Assembly (NCBI GenBank): GCA_027078545.1
Contig: JALWXN010000004.1
Span: 288,001-352,000, forward strand
DNA: 64,000 nt
Direction of reading: 5' to 3'
Source: Nitrososphaeria archaeon
GTDB taxonomy: Archaea > Thermoproteota > Nitrososphaeria > Geothermarchaeales > JDFR-13
This document shows, in pieces, positions 15,211-22,174 of this stretch (positions are counted from its first letter, which is position 1; each line of letters opens with the position of its first letter). Made by a program: the position numbers and the translations under genes. Under the pieces are notes generated by a model. The model worked only from the letters and a program-made list of their open reading frames with translations, ran no database searches and was not told where the DNA came from.

Positions 15211-15525
15211 ATGATCAGGGGAACGAAGACTAGGATAATTGTATATGGAACTGACCATAAGGCCCTGGACAGTTTTATGGAGGAGGTTAGGGCCATAGCT
15301 GAGAAGACGGGTGCGAAGTATTCTGGCCCTGTATACCTTCCTACTAAGAGGGTTGTCGTCCCTACTAGGAAGAGTCCCTGTGGACAGGGGAGTGAGACGT
15401 GGGACAAGTTTGAGCTTCGTATTCATAAGAGGCTTATCGATATTGAGCAGAACGAGAACACTATGAGGCATCTCATTAGGCTAAGGGTTCCTGACAACGT
15501 CTTTATCGAGGTAAGGCTTACATAG
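15211..15525 (+). CDS. rps10: 30S ribosomal protein S10
   Basis: GPVYLPTK, RKSPCG.GS.TW, HKRLID. Confidence 0.97.
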   Translation: MIRGTKTRIIVYGTDHKALDSFMEEVRAIAEKTGAKYSGPVYLPTKRVVVPTRKSPCGQGSETWDKFELRIHKRLIDIEQNENTMRHLIRLRVPDNVFIEVRLT

Positions 15526-15533
15526 CTACAATT

Positions 15534-15962
15534 CTATATGTCCAAGACATACTCGATCACGTATCTATCCCCCTCCATATCAATCCTCATCTCATGGTAG
15601 GTCATAGCCTTTACATGTATCTTTGGTTCATGCTTGTTTAGGTTGAGGTCTTCGCCCCACATCTCGGCGTGGAGGACGTATCTACCATCCTCTCTATGAA
15701 TCCTAGTCTTGAAGCGTGAGTAGATCTTACCTTCTGAGTCGAGCCTCACTATCAGCTCCTCAATGAAGTTGTAGAGAAGCTCCTCTAGGTCGTCTCCATA
15801 GACGGTCAGCTCATCCTTCTTCTGTGGAGTGACGGTATTAATATCTACCGTGGTGTCTGTGAAGGCCTCCGCGGCCTTCTCGAAGGCCTCCTCCAACGTT
15901 TTTCCCCAGGCCCTAATCTTTATGTCAGCAGTGTGTGACAGGAATTCATATCCATTCATCAA
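15534..15962 (-). CDS. Archease
   Basis: HTAD at N-terminus, VKAMTYH and final DI. Confidence 0.93.
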   Translation of the reverse strand: MMNGYEFLSHTADIKIRAWGKTLEEAFEKAAEAFTDTTVDINTVTPQKKDELTVYGDDLEELLYNFIEELIVRLDSEGKIYSRFKTRIHREDGRYVLHAEMWGEDLNLNKHEPKIHVKAMTYHEMRIDMEGDRYVIEYVLDI

Positions 15963-16062
15963 CTTTCACCACAATTCATACTTTATCCATGGTTCACATG
16001 ATATATGAGTAGGCCGTCTGTAGAGGGAATCATATAAAGACGTGCCAATACAGCGTACATAT

Positions 16063-16088
16063 TTTTTAATACCGGTGAAAATATTTTC
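16063..16088 (+). promoter_or_regulatory. Putative TATA box and palindromic operator of the oxidase operon
   Basis: TTTTTAAT (16063-16070) followed by ACCGGT and the perfect palindrome GAAAATATTTTC (16077-16088). Confidence 0.4.
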
Positions 16089-16106
16089 TAACATAACCAA
16101 ATTCAA

Positions 16107-16745
16107 GTGGATTCACGTGTGGTGGTAATCGTGACCCACGGGATAGTGCTCCAGATACCCGGGGAACCAGCTGGGACATGGTACTCACTATTCAACTTGT
16201 ACTTCAGTCTGGGACTGCTAGTAGGCTCAGTAGTAATAGGGATGTTGTTGTATTTCGTCTGGAAGTACAGAGAGTCAGTATCAAACGAGAGTGACGACAT
16301 AAAGCCAGGGGTAGTGCCTGGAGAACGGAGTAACATGAAGCTCATAGTAGTATTCTTTGGGCTAACATCGATCATACTCTTCACACTAGCGTCATACTCC
16401 ATCTTAGTGACTAACTATGTGGAGAAGGTTCCCAAGGCAGACGACATATTCGAGGTAACGGTGCAGGGTTTCCAGTGGGGTTGGCGCTTCATATACCCCA
16501 ATGGAACGGAGGTCGTTGGTGAGGTTGTGGTTCCAAAGGATAAGATCGTCGTCTTCAGAATAACCAGCATGGATGTTTTCCATAAGTTCCAACTTATTGA
16601 GTTTAGAACAGGTGCAGACGCTCTTCCAGGAGCCTTTAACGTGATATGGATAAAGCCTACTGAGGCCGGCACATACACCATACAGTGCTATGAGCTCTGT
16701 GGAATTGGGCATTCCTTGATGGTCGCTACTCTGAGGGTCGTGTGA
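16107..16745 (+). CDS. coxB: Heme-copper oxidase subunit II (CuA)
   Basis: Two TM helices, GFQWGWRF, DVFH and CYELCGIGHSLM CuA ligands. The true start may be a few codons downstream. Confidence 0.95.
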   Translation: MDSRVVVIVTHGIVLQIPGEPAGTWYSLFNLYFSLGLLVGSVVIGMLLYFVWKYRESVSNESDDIKPGVVPGERSNMKLIVVFFGLTSIILFTLASYSILVTNYVEKVPKADDIFEVTVQGFQWGWRFIYPNGTEVVGEVVVPKDKIVVFRITSMDVFHKFQLIEFRTGADALPGAFNVIWIKPTEAGTYTIQCYELCGIGHSLMVATLRVV

Positions 16746-16762
16746 AGTGGGGGTGAGTATAA

Positions 16763-19096
16763 GTGGAGAACAAGAGTGGATTGATGAGATGGCTAACAAC
16801 TACGAATCATAAGGACATAGGGCTTCTATACTTAGTAACTTCGCTATACTTCCTAATGGTAGGAGGTACATTGGCTCTAACCTTCAGGCTACAACTAGCC
16901 TTCCCCCAAGCGGAGATTCTCAGCGCATCTGCCTTTAACCAAGCAATAACTATGCACGGACTTATAATGGTGCTATGGGCAATCTCTCCCTTCGCCTTCG
17001 CCTTCGCCAACTATATAGTGCCGATCCAGATTGGAGCTAGGGACATGGCGTTCCCTAGGCTTAACGCGCTTAGCTACTGGCTCTACTTATTTAGTGGCCT
17101 CCTAGCAGCATTATCGTTCTTCCTACCGGGTGGGGCCCCTGATGTAGGGTGGACCTACTACGTGCCATTGTCAACTCCCAAGTTTACCCCTCAGCCAGGT
17201 GTCACAGTCGCAGCTTTGGCATTAGCAATGCTGGTCGCTTCTGTGACCGTTGGTACGATAAACTTCATTGTTACGATTGCAACCTTGAGGGCACCGGGAA
17301 TGGGCTGGTCTAAACTACCCATGTTTACTTGGGGGATACTTTACACAGTGTTGCTTATGTTGTTCGCATTTGGGCCAGTGGCTGCAGGTTTCTTCCTACT
17401 AGCTATAGATAGAGTGTTTGGCACAGCATTCTTCACCTCTCCGGAAGGAGGAGCCATACTATGGACGCACATGTTCTGGTTCTTTGGCCATCCCGAGGTC
17501 TACATTGTACTCGCTCCTGCTATCGGTGTTGTTGGTGATGTGATAGAGACCTTTACCAGGAAGCCTCTCTTTGGAAGGAAGTACATACTGATTGCTTTCG
17601 GAATAGCCAGCTTCATCAGCTTCATAGTATACGTTCACCACATGTTTGCTACAGGAATCAACCCCATAATTAGAGAAGTGATGAGCATAACTACGGAGTC
17701 GATATCAGTCCCATTCGGCGTAATAATGCTGTCATTCATATTCTCGTTCTACAAGGCTAGGGTGAGGATCAGGACACCTCTGCTCTTCGCGATAGGATCC
17801 ATAGTACTATTCATTGTTGGAGGCATAACGGGTGTGTTCAACTCCTCAATAGCTCTAGACAGGTTTATCCGTGGCACCTACTGGGTAGTTGCTCACTTCC
17901 ACTACGCGATGGTCGGTGCGACACTCTTTGGACTTCTAGCAGCGATGTACTACTGGTATCCAAAGATAACTGGCAAGATGTACGATGAAAAGCTAGGTAA
18001 GATACACTTCGCCATAGCGTTCATCGGCTTTAACCTACTATACTTCCCAATGTTCGTTATCTACGAGATGCCTAGGAGAGTAAACACCTACTTCGTAGAG
18101 GAATGGATACCGATGAACCAGTTAGCGACACTAGGAGGTTATGTCTTCGGACTTTCATTCCTAATAATGGTCTACAACCTTCTAAAGAGCCTCAAAACAG
18201 GGCCACCAGCTGGTAATAACCCGTGGGGTGCCTGGACTCTAGAGTGGATGACAACCTCTCCCCCACCGCCACATAACTTCGACTTCGAGCCCATGATAAG
18301 TGGTAATCAGATCACCTTCTACACCAACGGAGGTGTGCCACATAAGCACATCGAGTATCACACCATGATGCCGATGTTGCTGTCTGTCTCACTGATGTTA
18401 TCGTTCTTCGGTCTTATGATGTATACACCACTGTTCATTATCGGTGCTGCGATGCTAGCAGCGGTATTGACCAAGTGGCTCATCGATGACATCTACGACA
18501 GATTCGTCATACCAGAGCCAGAAAACACTATGAAGTGGCCATTCGACCATATGAATAGGCTGAAGTTCGGTGTATGGATACTGGTAATTAGCGAGGCTAT
18601 GCTATTCGCAGCTCTATTCGGTGCATATAGCTTGCTTAGAATCAACCTGATAGGTGAATGGCCGTATGGACCAGCGGTTCACGATGTTAGGCTGGGCGGT
18701 GTCAACACAATAATCCTACTGACAAGTAGCCTAACGGTAGTACTTGCAGTCGCATATGCTAAGATGGGTGACCAGCGTAAGATGCTGTACTCACTTGGAG
18801 CGACCTATGTCTTAGGCCTAATATTCCTCGGCCTAAAGGGCTATGAGTGGATGAAGCTTTATGACGAGGGCTTCACACTGACTAGTGATCTCCCATCATC
18901 GCTATACTATGTCATGACGGGCACTCACGCAGCGCATATGATCGCGGGCATGATAGCGCTGTCATACATCATTGTGAAGGCATTGAGAGGAGTGTACAAT
19001 GAAAAGAACTATGACGGTGTAGAGGCGTTCGGAATCTATTGGCACTTCGTTGACATTGTCTGGATATTCCTATTTGCGATCTTCTACTTGATGTGA
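16763..19096 (+). CDS. coxA: Heme-copper oxidase subunit I fused to subunit III (A1-like)
   Basis: NHKDIG, WFFGHPEVY, HHMF, VAHFHY, MPRR; C-terminal subunit III motifs ISEAMLF, TGTHAAH, YWHFVD.VW. Confidence 0.96.
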   Translation: MENKSGLMRWLTTTNHKDIGLLYLVTSLYFLMVGGTLALTFRLQLAFPQAEILSASAFNQAITMHGLIMVLWAISPFAFAFANYIVPIQIGARDMAFPRLNALSYWLYLFSGLLAALSFFLPGGAPDVGWTYYVPLSTPKFTPQPGVTVAALALAMLVASVTVGTINFIVTIATLRAPGMGWSKLPMFTWGILYTVLLMLFAFGPVAAGFFLLAIDRVFGTAFFTSPEGGAILWTHMFWFFGHPEVYIVLAPAIGVVGDVIETFTRKPLFGRKYILIAFGIASFISFIVYVHHMFATGINPIIREVMSITTESISVPFGVIMLSFIFSFYKARVRIRTPLLFAIGSIVLFIVGGITGVFNSSIALDRFIRGTYWVVAHFHYAMVGATLFGLLAAMYYWYPKITGKMYDEKLGKIHFAIAFIGFNLLYFPMFVIYEMPRRVNTYFVEEWIPMNQLATLGGYVFGLSFLIMVYNLLKSLKTGPPAGNNPWGAWTLEWMTTSPPPPHNFDFEPMISGNQITFYTNGGVPHKHIEYHTMMPMLLSVSLMLSFFGLMMYTPLFIIGAAMLAAVLTKWLIDDIYDRFVIPEPENTMKWPFDHMNRLKFGVWILVISEAMLFAALFGAYSLLRINLIGEWPYGPAVHDVRLGGVNTIILLTSSLTVVLAVAYAKMGDQRKMLYSLGATYVLGLIFLGLKGYEWMKLYDEGFTLTSDLPSSLYYVMTGTHAAHMIAGMIALSYIIVKALRGVYNEKNYDGVEAFGIYWHFVDIVWIFLFAIFYLM

Positions 19097-19097
19097 G

Positions 19098-19391
19098 GTG
19101 AGAATGATGGCGAAGGAGCCAATAAACCTATATGTTGGTGTTTGGGGGCTGCTGGTAGGGCTCACGATACTTGAGATATTCATGGTACTGGTGGAGATGC
19201 CGATCATACTGCTAATAACAGGTGTGCTACTCCTAGCAGGTGTGAAGGCGGGATTCGTAGCACTATTCTACCAGCACCTAAAATGGGACGACGTAGCAAT
19301 ATCATGGTTCTACCTAATGGCCCTATTCTTTGCACTATTCATCGTAATGGTCTGGACAGGTGGATCGGCGGTCTGCCAGGTGGAAATATGA
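19098..19391 (+). CDS. Oxidase subunit IV family protein
   Basis: Three TM helices; LT..E and KAGFVALFYQHLKWD motif. Confidence 0.85.
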   Translation: MRMMAKEPINLYVGVWGLLVGLTILEIFMVLVEMPIILLITGVLLLAGVKAGFVALFYQHLKWDDVAISWFYLMALFFALFIVMVWTGGSAVCQVEI

Positions 19392-19870
19392 GGGGGGTCA
19401 TCATCACACTAGTAGCAATAGCTCTAATCATCGATCTAGCGATAATAGCGGTATTGGTATTCGATCTCCAACCACCACTCCGCGGAGGTGCAACCGTCAC
19501 AATAACCCCAGACTATGAGATAACGGTCTATGGAGGGGAGACCAACATAAATGGTCAAGTGGCGTACGCATATGGACTATCCCCCGACAACCTTACAGTA
19601 CCAGGCCCCTCATTCGAGTTTAAACGTGGCGATGTTGTAGGCTTCACTTTTGTGAATGTGGGGAACCTCCCACATACATTCTCATTAGTCCCCAGAGTTG
19701 ACCCTGCCAATCCAGAGATTATCGACGACTATGATACGGGACAGATTGAAGGAGGTGGTCAGGGGAGAGTTGTTGTACAGTTCAATCAGGTGGGTACACT
19801 GAACTATCAATGTGTGGTGCCAGGTCACGCTGCTCTGGGGATGTGGGGGAATATAACGGTAACTGAGTAG
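19388..19870 (+). CDS. Membrane-anchored blue copper protein (sulfocyanin/rusticyanin-like cupredoxin)
   Basis: N-terminal TM; type-1 Cu ligands PHTF...YQCVVPGHAALGM. Start ATG 19388 overlaps the subunit IV stop. Confidence 0.88.
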   Translation: MRGVIITLVAIALIIDLAIIAVLVFDLQPPLRGGATVTITPDYEITVYGGETNINGQVAYAYGLSPDNLTVPGPSFEFKRGDVVGFTFVNVGNLPHTFSLVPRVDPANPEIIDDYDTGQIEGGGQGRVVVQFNQVGTLNYQCVVPGHAALGMWGNITVTE

Positions 19871-19943
19871 TATTAACCAGTAAATACAGTAACATATCCC
19901 AACATCTTTTTATTCCTATACTGACTCTGGTGAGGGGAGAGCC

Positions 19944-21431
19944 ATGAACAAGTTTGTTTTGGTGGTTCTACTTCTGATCACTCTGATAGTTTCGACTGTT
20001 GTGGGTATAGTCTTAGTGTTCTTTCCACAGTACTCGCCCTTGACGGGTGGTTTTACCGGAAACCAGTACATAAACCAGCCTCCAGCCGCCGACTTCACCT
20101 TAACCATGATAAATGGCACTAAGTTCAGGTTGAGTGACTATGCTGGAAAGGTTATAGTCATCTCCTTCATCTACTCTCATTGCCCTGACATATGCCCAGC
20201 TATAACCTCTGGATTTGCAGAGATAGGTGATATTTTGGAGGCTGAAGGAATTCTGGGAGATGCCATCCTTGTTCTCATACCTGTTGACTACCCGGGTGGC
20301 TATGTTGTTGCCGCCACGACTGATAGTCTTTACTACTTGAATTATAGTGGTGTCCCCGAGTGGAAGATAGAGTTGGACTATATACCCATGGGGGTAGAGA
20401 TGTCCCAGGATGCAGGGAGGATTGTGACATGGAGCGATGACACGGTATACATATATGATAGAGACGGCTCTCTACTTACAAGGTTCCTATATCCAGATGG
20501 TATTAGCGACGTGTTCGTATCGGGTGCGGGTCTATTCATCGCTGTAGCATCAGGAAACGTTGTCGACATATATATAGAGGTTTCAGAGGGGCTTGAATAT
20601 TCATACAACAAGTATTCTTCGGTCATCCTAGATAGCGATGTAGTTGGTCTGGGAGCAACAACAAATGGCACATACATATACACTGTCACTACAGACGGAC
20701 TTCTATATAGGATATACAATGGTGAGGTGGATGCCAACATAAGTGTTATTAACAAGACTGTGGTCTGGGGGGATATTGCGTATAGCGGGTCTGTGGCGCT
20801 CCTAGCGACGAATGATTCGCTCTACATGTACAACGTACTTTCCAACTCACTGATAGAGCTTCCGTTTTCACCTGATACTGTGATTGACTATGATATATCC
20901 CAAACTGGAGACTATGTTGCCTTAGTAACAGTTGACGGGGTTTACCTACTAAACGACGACGGTGAGGAGGTTTGGGTTAGACCTACAAGTGCCTCTAGTG
21001 TGTCCATATCTGGTGACAATTATTTCGTATCTATATCCGAGGGAAATAGGGTGTACAGGCTGGATATTAACGGAACTGTTCAGTGGGAAACATCTATTGA
21101 AAGCGATGTCATGTTTGTGGATGTCACTATGGAGAGGGACTCGCCTAGAAGGCTGAAGGAGTGGAGTGAGATCTACGATGCGGAACAGACAATATTCCTA
21201 TATGGATCTTACAAGACATTGTCAAGGATTTGGTCGAACTACGGAATAGCTGTTGCATATGTCGATGTGGATGATCCAGCTACATCATATCTTGTGGCTC
21301 ATACTGGGATGGTATATATCATAGATAAGGAGTTTAAGGTTAGAATCTTCTTCATAGGGGCTCCACCGCAGTGGAGCGCGTCTGACGTGGTTAATGATGT
21401 AATGATACTTGTCAAGGAGGAGGTGGAATAG
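19944..21431 (+). CDS. Sco/SenC copper chaperone with an inserted beta-propeller-like domain
   Basis: DFTL, FIYSHCPDICP (CxxxC), VD...ERDSP and YLVAHT Sco motifs, separated by about 281 aa of repeated beta-strand blades (DISQTGDYVAL, SISGDNYFV, G..QW). Confidence 0.85.
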   Translation: MNKFVLVVLLLITLIVSTVVGIVLVFFPQYSPLTGGFTGNQYINQPPAADFTLTMINGTKFRLSDYAGKVIVISFIYSHCPDICPAITSGFAEIGDILEAEGILGDAILVLIPVDYPGGYVVAATTDSLYYLNYSGVPEWKIELDYIPMGVEMSQDAGRIVTWSDDTVYIYDRDGSLLTRFLYPDGISDVFVSGAGLFIAVASGNVVDIYIEVSEGLEYSYNKYSSVILDSDVVGLGATTNGTYIYTVTTDGLLYRIYNGEVDANISVINKTVVWGDIAYSGSVALLATNDSLYMYNVLSNSLIELPFSPDTVIDYDISQTGDYVALVTVDGVYLLNDDGEEVWVRPTSASSVSISGDNYFVSISEGNRVYRLDINGTVQWETSIESDVMFVDVTMERDSPRRLKEWSEIYDAEQTIFLYGSYKTLSRIWSNYGIAVAYVDVDDPATSYLVAHTGMVYIIDKEFKVRIFFIGAPPQWSASDVVNDVMILVKEEVE

Positions 21432-21454
21432 ATCCTTTCTTTCTTTATACTTTT

Positions 21455-22174
21455 CTATATCCTTACTTTCCCTGCTACATAGATCATTACAGCTATGTTG
21501 ATTATGATACCTATGACAAGTAGGCTGTTTAACAGGTTTACATATAATGCTGATACTCCTAAAAGGGTGCCTGTAGAGGATGATACTATCACTCCTGCCA
21601 CTGTCATTAGGGCTGTGAATCCACATGAAGGGCATGACACTGCTGCTGATGCCGCTGTGGAGACTCCCACTACGCTCAGTGTTGTGGCTAGTCCTGAGGT
21701 ACCAGCCTCGGCTCTACACTTACCCTTCATAGTCTTGTTATAGAACCATATTATTGTGAATACCATGGCTGATACTATCGAGACTGCTAATATAAGCGCC
21801 ATTGTAAGTGGGCTGAAGGTGACTAGCCAGTATGTCTTCCCAGTTAGGAATCCTGGATTGTTGTTCAGGAAGTAATCGTTGAACTCTAGGCCATACCATA
21901 TCAAGACGCCCCTAGGTATCTCCATGTTAGGCGTTGGGTATGTTATCTCCTTGGGAGGGTCTCCAAACCCATATATGACGCTAGTATTGCCTGTAAAGAT
22001 GATCTGCACGGCTAGGGGGGTCAGGAAATTGATTATGAAGAGTATGGATAGTGCTAATGCGAAGAAGCGTGGATGCCTAGTGAGGCTATGTACCAAAACG
22101 TTGAAGGTATGGATAAGCCTCCTCATCTCTCTAGTTATCGTAATCATAGGTGTAGGAATATTAATGTTTAGCAA
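21455..22174 (-). CDS. Multi-pass membrane protein with SCPSCG motif (possible copper/redox accessory factor)
   Basis: About four hydrophobic segments, GKCR and CPSC motifs, same composition as the oxidase genes. Start uncertain. Confidence 0.6.
   Translation of the reverse strand: MLNINIPTPMITITREMRRLIHTFNVLVHSLTRHPRFFALALSILFIINFLTPLAVQIIFTGNTSVIYGFGDPPKEITYPTPNMEIPRGVLIWYGLEFNDYFLNNNPGFLTGKTYWLVTFSPLTMALILAVSIVSAMVFTIIWFYNKTMKGKCRAEAGTSGLATTLSVVGVSTAASAAVSCPSCGFTALMTVAGVIVSSSTGTLLGVSALYVNLLNSLLVIGIIINIAVMIYVAGKVRI

Follow-up and report, generated by a model that had tools for sequence, protein, structure and literature searches.

The window analyzed here, a stretch of 64,000 nucleotides from a Nitrososphaeria archaeon, encodes a Sco copper chaperone that is split, within its conserved VDPERD loop, by a nested segment of 281 residues predicted to fold as a complete seven-bladed β-propeller. 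Few copper chaperones have been studied as thoroughly as the Sco proteins, whose thioredoxin fold of about 170 residues is usually treated as one compact unit. In the present protein the copper ligands are intact, the segment was acquired once, and it is kept under purifying selection. We propose, with somewhat better than even confidence, that the protein would be a working CuA chaperone in which the Sco fold has closed around a rigid, co-adapted propeller pedestal following one insertion. It would serve as the membrane-tethered Sco of a heme–copper oxidase operon in an uncultured archaeon of the Geothermarchaeota type.

Gene Anatomy and Position of the Insertion

The features of the gene and its neighbors are collected in Table 1. 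When the whole protein was scanned against Pfam, SCO1-SenC (PF02630) scored 68.7 bits, above its cut-off of 22.8. The match falls into two stretches, the first covering aa 49–112 (profile positions 2–63), with weak propeller-type matches lying between the two. In the genome search, the stretches spanned profile positions 2–64 and 56–132 of 134. A profile built from the six members of the family, compared with the solved Bradyrhizobium ScoI (4wbj), aligned query residues 46–114 with chain residues 6–74 and query residues 388–472 with chain residues 68–150; its middle part aligned to propeller repeats, both designed and natural. The initial annotation held that all copper ligands had survived the insertion of a propeller into the VDPERD loop, and this is borne out, since C80, C84, and H453 show no variation when 73 sequences are aligned. 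The split-motif residues D115 and D399 are invariant in the same alignment, and R398 is also kept. Judged by profile, ligands, and gene context, the protein belongs to the SCO1/SenC family, and its gene is the only one of this family in the 1.24-Mb, 92%-complete assembly. The N-terminal anchor should leave the remainder of the protein outside the cytoplasmic membrane, as far as topology can be read from the sequence.

Table 1. Features of the Sco gene and the surrounding oxidase operon (window coordinates)
Feature	Position	Strand	Basis
Whole gene, 495-aa Sco copper chaperone with nested propeller (P0001)	19944–21431	+	Single ORF
N-terminal membrane anchor, hydrophobic helix, aa 1–26	19944–20021	+	AF2 helix aa 3–26, sequence
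Sco N-terminal half, aa 49–115, ending in V114-D115 of the split VDPERD	20088–20288	+	Pfam, 4wbj alignment
CPDIC copper-binding motif, C80 and C84	20181–20195	+	Invariant, 73 aligned sequences
Predicted nested seven-bladed β-propeller, aa 116–396, 281 aa	20289–21131	+	AF2, Foldseek, VIA-align
Sco C-terminal half, aa 397–495, beginning with E397-R398-D399	21132–21428	+	Profile and alignment
H453 codon, distal copper ligand	21300–21302	+	Invariant, 73 aligned sequences
CoxB, oxidase subunit II, complete CuA motif (H..., CYELCGIGHSLM)	16107–16745	+	
Fused CoxA/CoxC (777 aa; COX1 and COX3 domains)	16763–19096	+	Pfam
CoxA/CoxC followed by subunit IV (97 aa)	16763–19391	+	
Cupredoxin (blue-copper protein) with membrane anchor, immediately upstream of Sco	19283–19870	+	
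239-aa membrane protein with CPSC in a hydrophobic stretch, convergent with the Sco gene	21455–22174	−	

The exact junction was obtained from a joint alignment with seven uninserted orthologues, three from the same genus (G001, G003, G004) and four from the same family (G012, G005, G011, G007). One clean gap was found, VD / YPGG...VDV(T/A)M / ERD, which confirms to the base the previously annotated split of the Sco domain at 20288/21132 by a 281-residue insert. The Sco proteins of these relatives have about 212–216 residues and match the query through residue 115 and again from about residue 390, with no match between. Their translations read through a contiguous ...VSVDPERDTP..., so the insert lies exactly between VD and ERD, with the proline replaced. 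In the present protein, the loop is therefore non-contiguous, divided between D115 and E397, with a methionine in place of the proline. An unbroken VDPERD is a conserved motif of the SCO1/SenC family, though membership is not formally defined by it. The uninserted orthologues (loci L005–L011; P0008) share 45–55% identity with the query over both halves and have the same anchor, ligands, and operon position; they differ in their contiguous VDPERD and at six Sco-half positions where the inserted clade has fixed another residue.

The gene order coxA/C, cox4, cupredoxin, Sco, an opposite-strand membrane protein with a CPSC motif, and GT4 is common to inserted and uninserted genomes. The inserted and uninserted Sco genes are therefore true orthologues. 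In the same-genus uninserted orthologues, coxB, coxA/C, cox4, cupredoxin, and Sco occupy the same operon positions.

Compared with canonical Sco/SenC proteins, such as B. diazoefficiens ScoI (4wbj/4wbr), B. subtilis BsSco (1xzo), and human SCO1, the protein shares the anchor, the thioredoxin-like domain, CxxxC with a distal His, the conserved D...ERD, and a gene located beside a heme–copper oxidase. Conversely, the canonical proteins have about 200–215 residues as opposed to 495, and only here is the β4–α2 loop opened by a propeller with loss of the proline.

It is hardly credible that the insert is an artefact or a removable element, that is, an assembly chimera, an intein, or an archaeal bulge-helix-bulge intron. 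The unusual architecture is the one point in favor of such an origin. Against it, six independent and diverged sequences from different sources share the same in-frame build, the residues at the junction are invariant in the inserted proteins, and selection acts on the insert at the protein level. The diverged copies rule out an assembly chimera, which had been named as something that would undo the original reading. An intein is ruled out as well: as first noted, intein termini are missing, the insert beginning with Y116 and ending with T395-M396, followed by E397, a set of residues that provides no intein chemistry. For an intron of the bulge-helix-bulge type, cofolding of the junctions gave −17.0 kcal/mol against a mean of −23.7 kcal/mol for shuffled sequences (z +2.0), i.e., weaker pairing.

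Predicted Structure of the Propeller

An AlphaFold2 model was calculated from the 73-row alignment. Its mean pLDDT was 95.8, and all five models reached at least 95.1. The insert contains 28 strands in this model (aa 121–394), arranged as three strands, then six groups of four, and then one. Blade 1 is composed of the last strand (aa 389–394) together with the first three (aa 121–143). Because the last strand pairs with the first three, the two ends of the insert emerge side by side. A loop insertion requires such adjacent ends, and in the model the Sco fold is able to close around the graft. In the remainder of the protein, helices and strands follow one another in an order consistent with the Sco fold, with pLDDT above 90.

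The initial annotation described the insert as a whole propeller, and the model agrees, indicating a complete seven-bladed β-propeller. The best Foldseek match was 7bid, a seven-bladed designer propeller (E 2e-17, TM 0.74 normalized to the target). VIA-align superimposed the insert on 7bid with Z 25.9 and an rmsd of 3.4 over 270 residues, and on the archaeal YVTN propeller 1l0q with Z 23.7. Among the Foldseek and VIA-align matches listed, all were propellers and none was a Sco chain. In profile scans of the insert alone, DUF5711 reached 29.1 bits against a cut-off of 26.3, but each single stretch fell below the cut-off; matches to PQQ_2, Beta-prop_ACSF4, and the COPA propeller were all below their own cut-offs.

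The repeats are probably of the WD40/PQQ-like/YVTN kind. Archaeal extracellular propellers of this kind (1l0q; the free-standing P0029, P0061, and P0096) likewise have seven four-stranded blades of about 40 residues, and the S-x-D-G and D-G turns are common to them and the insert. The sequence matches between the insert and P0029, P0061, and P0096 are weak. These propellers occur free-standing or in tandem with other domains, whereas the one in Sco is nested.

By the WD40 convention, the chain leaves after the inner A strand and re-enters at the B strand. Together with the strand order, this implies that Sco replaces the A–B turn of blade 1 and is therefore attached on the side of the propeller away from the face that normally binds ligands. 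Both the packing of Sco against this side and the placement of the copper site would follow from the strand order and the loop convention. The pTM of 0.88 across the two domains suggests that Sco and the propeller are packed in a fixed arrangement.

Distribution and Origin of the Insertion

A search of 5.8 billion clustered proteins recovered only six proteins with the Sco-propeller build, sharing 52–93% identity, and an HMMER scan of 1.84 billion representatives added no further cluster. A member at 52% identity is encoded on a 230-kb metagenome contig that carries the same operon. In all six proteins, the insert is 281–283 residues long and the frame is kept.

When the Sco halves were placed in a tree, all six proteins grouped as a single clade (support 100/99) on a long stem branch (0.45), sister to the uninserted same-genus forms. 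The simplest reading is that the insertion happened once. The survey of related genomes gave the same picture: the insertion was seen in this clade of six, and the seven relatives of the same genus and family named above are uninserted. Among 59 relatives, the insert was found in none except G002. The propeller would thus have entered the β4–α2 loop, between VD and ERD, in the ancestor of this small clade.

No second copy of the insert is present in the genome, and a word-indexed search for a free-standing relative of 154–492 residues returned none. A donor or close sequence relative was not found, generic repeat propellers giving only weak matches. Insert and Sco halves alike have a GC content of 44.7%; therefore, the insert is no recent foreign arrival. 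The initial annotation knew of no described Sco with this architecture, and in the literature searched we likewise found no description of a Sco with a nested propeller or insertion. The build is new, a rare and lineage-specific domain insertion.

Selection and Conservation of the Insert

Between the window gene and its 93% orthologue (dS 0.7–1.1), dN/dS was 0.053 for the insert and 0.024 for the joined Sco halves. Ratios this low point to strong purifying selection on the insert at the protein level. Such selection is no proof of added function, since misfolding of the insert would cost the organism its single Sco, and a requirement for foldability could be enough to account for the low ratio. 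By itself, it does not distinguish a pedestal from a tolerated passenger.

The latter possibility assumes that the propeller landed by chance in a permissive surface loop and added no function. It would have persisted due to its adjacent ends, its independent folding, and the fact that any change unfolding or partly deleting it would eliminate the single Sco of the cell; later co-adaptation would then have locked it in. The insert does evolve much faster than its host, with 37–39% identity at the deepest split (P0005, P0006) compared with 64–78% in the Sco halves. The top face and the distal blades 4–6 are almost unconstrained, no metal ligands are present, and close relatives with the same operon manage without the insert. 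On the other hand, dN/dS is about 0.05, and the length has stayed within two residues over deep divergence. The invariant non-glycine residues of the surface loops (SQD, SGAG, TN, SQ) exceed what turns need, and 281 residues are costly in a streamlined genome of 1.24 Mb. We consider a functionless insert, the main alternative to the pedestal, unlikely, though it deserves serious weight.

The pattern of conservation is uneven, as far as six sequences in two deep groups, a weak basis for such statistics, allow it to be read: 41% of positions are invariant in the A strands, 53% in the A–B loops, and 28% in the C–D loops, as opposed to 5% in both the B–C and D–A loops. By blade, the values are 38, 31, 26, and 22% for blades 1, 2, 7, and 3, and 13–15% for blades 4–6, so that invariant positions cluster at the junction and in blades 1, 2, 7, and 3. 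The conserved loops would thus belong to the face and blades assigned next to Sco, and the usual partner-binding face would be free to vary. Part of this asymmetry may be structural, because the A–B and C–D turns (S-x-D-G, D-G) carry the signature of this repeat type. The inserted clade has fixed different residues at six positions of its Sco halves, including T to S78 beside CxxxC and LTG to LYG. These changes fit co-adaptation of the Sco sequence to its insert.

We therefore return to the pedestal reading, in which the propeller is most likely a rigid, tightly packed body lacking copper ligands and co-adapted with Sco. It would fix the position or orientation of Sco outside the membrane, and it may add surface beside the copper site. 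A more elaborate arrangement, which we regard as improbable, is a composite machine in which the conserved propeller face would have the copper site at its rim or mouth; the propeller would then gate the access of client or copper donor, or protect the copper-thiolate outside a cell that has no periplasm.

A role in metal handling was also considered. The initial annotation listed a metal- or cofactor-binding module among the possible functions, and a very acidic propeller could collect or buffer copper or another cation and feed it to the Sco site. The insert has a pI of about 4.05, with 40 Asp and Glu against 10 Lys and Arg, and M153 and M396 are invariant. However, it contains no Cys and either no His or a single unconserved one, so a usual copper site is unlikely. 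The Sco halves are of similar acidity (pI 4.4–4.6), and the acidity looks protein-wide. Pfam and NCBIfam revealed no known metal-site motif in the insert. We judge this role to be very unlikely.

Operon and Copper Delivery

The Sco gene lies on the same strand as coxB, coxA/C, cox4, and the cupredoxin gene and downstream of them, in association with a CuA-bearing oxidase. CoxB, which carries a complete CuA motif, is the client expected for this Sco; it is about 80–95% identical across the inserted genomes and nearly unchanged between the deepest members. A PCuAC gene is located on the same contig outside the window (G000:C4:735770-736087, minus strand; 70.2 bits, cut-off 29.4), far from the oxidase operon. 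Sco is presumably still needed in this organism, given that the genome has only this Sco gene, the ligands are invariant, the CuA motif of CoxB is complete, and PCuAC is present.

In Bradyrhizobium, Sco and CoxB form a copper-bridged complex through two cysteines of each protein, which PcuC resolves (PMC6669012). A pathway of this type is assumed here by analogy. C80, C84, and H453 most likely continue to serve the Sco module as copper ligands, and Sco and the PCuAC of this genome are predicted to prepare the CuA site in CoxB and to load it with copper.

We also considered whether the propeller replaces a missing PCuAC. This was rejected, as PCuAC genes occur in the inserted G000 and G002 and in the uninserted G003.

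The 239-aa membrane protein with the CPSC motif adjoins Sco in inserted and uninserted relatives, and scans against Pfam and NCBIfam gave no family for it. It could supply Sco with thiol reductant or carry copper to it. As listed, the cupredoxin ORF shares 109 nt with the subunit IV gene; the true start may be an internal Met near position 19388, immediately ahead of the hydrophobic anchor. The oxidase-Sco module, at about 15500–22000, has a GC content of 43–49%, compared with 51–54% in its flanks. Since its gene order is conserved across the family, any transfer would be old.

The alternative proposed in the initial annotation is that the propeller is a docking platform, which would recruit a partner to the copper site and thereby speed or direct copper transfer. 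Candidates are the CuA domain of CoxB, the neighboring cupredoxin, PCuAC, and the CPSC membrane protein. Propellers are common protein-binding modules, and in the thioredoxin-fold topology the loop after β4, where the insertion occurred, lies on the same sheet edge as the CxxxC loop. Sco must approach CoxB closely, as one Cu is shared through four cysteines (PMC6669012), and the conserved loops are assigned to the face beside Sco. The conservation pattern nevertheless does not favor docking: the loops of the top face, which is the canonical binding face, are 5% invariant, as opposed to 53% in the A–B loops on the Sco-bearing face, and CoxB, the suggested partner, is almost unchanged across the same genomes. 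In addition, relatives without the propeller have the same candidate partners. A docking role appears quite improbable.

Relation to Other Nested and Tandem Proteins

A thioredoxin-like domain and a propeller also occur in one chain in human NHLRC2 (PMC6107167). In that protein, the two domains stand in tandem, with a six-bladed NHL propeller and a thioredoxin that is not a Sco, whereas here the propeller is nested, seven-bladed, and carried by a Sco. Pfam gave no match to NHL repeats in the Sco-propeller protein. Bacterial redoxin-NHL proteins (Atlas leads, scores under 0.8) may combine a thioredoxin-like domain with a propeller in tandem as well.

Another near analogue is a nested "SCO family protein" of the Poseidoniales (P0162, P0070, and relatives), which is also archaeal, also has a large nested domain, and has kept its ligands. 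It is unrelated to the Sco-propeller insertion: its insert, which is not a propeller, occupies the loop immediately preceding the ligand His, the protein has a C-terminal helix, and it is far more widespread. P0162, P0070, and P0158–P0173 have about 505–510 residues, and P0066, P0084, and P0175–P0178 have about 370–400. Their inserts of 160–270 residues, from clusters of up to about 300 member sequences, consist of two repeated β-rich units with an SWWW...WN...WEES motif and a Cys-rich piece; there was one DUF4430 match. An AlphaFold2 model of this protein had a pLDDT of 82, and its Sco part matched solved Sco structures. A further variant, P0013 (394 aa), has two complete Sco domains in tandem, seen as four matched stretches.

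Implications

The protein carries a nested domain larger than its host, in a conserved loop beside the active-site edge, and selection has maintained this domain in the sole Sco of a streamlined genome. The organisms are uncultured, and the practical value of the finding is limited. As close orthologues lack the insert, nature has provided an experiment with and without it. Comparison of these orthologues can show what role an accessory surface plays in CuA assembly outside the archaeal membrane, and the family offers a clean case for how nested domains arise and become locked in. If the composite arrangement were true, CuA assembly would work differently in this lineage. Taken together with the nested Sco of the Poseidoniales, it would make Sco a recurrent host of accessory domains in marine archaea.
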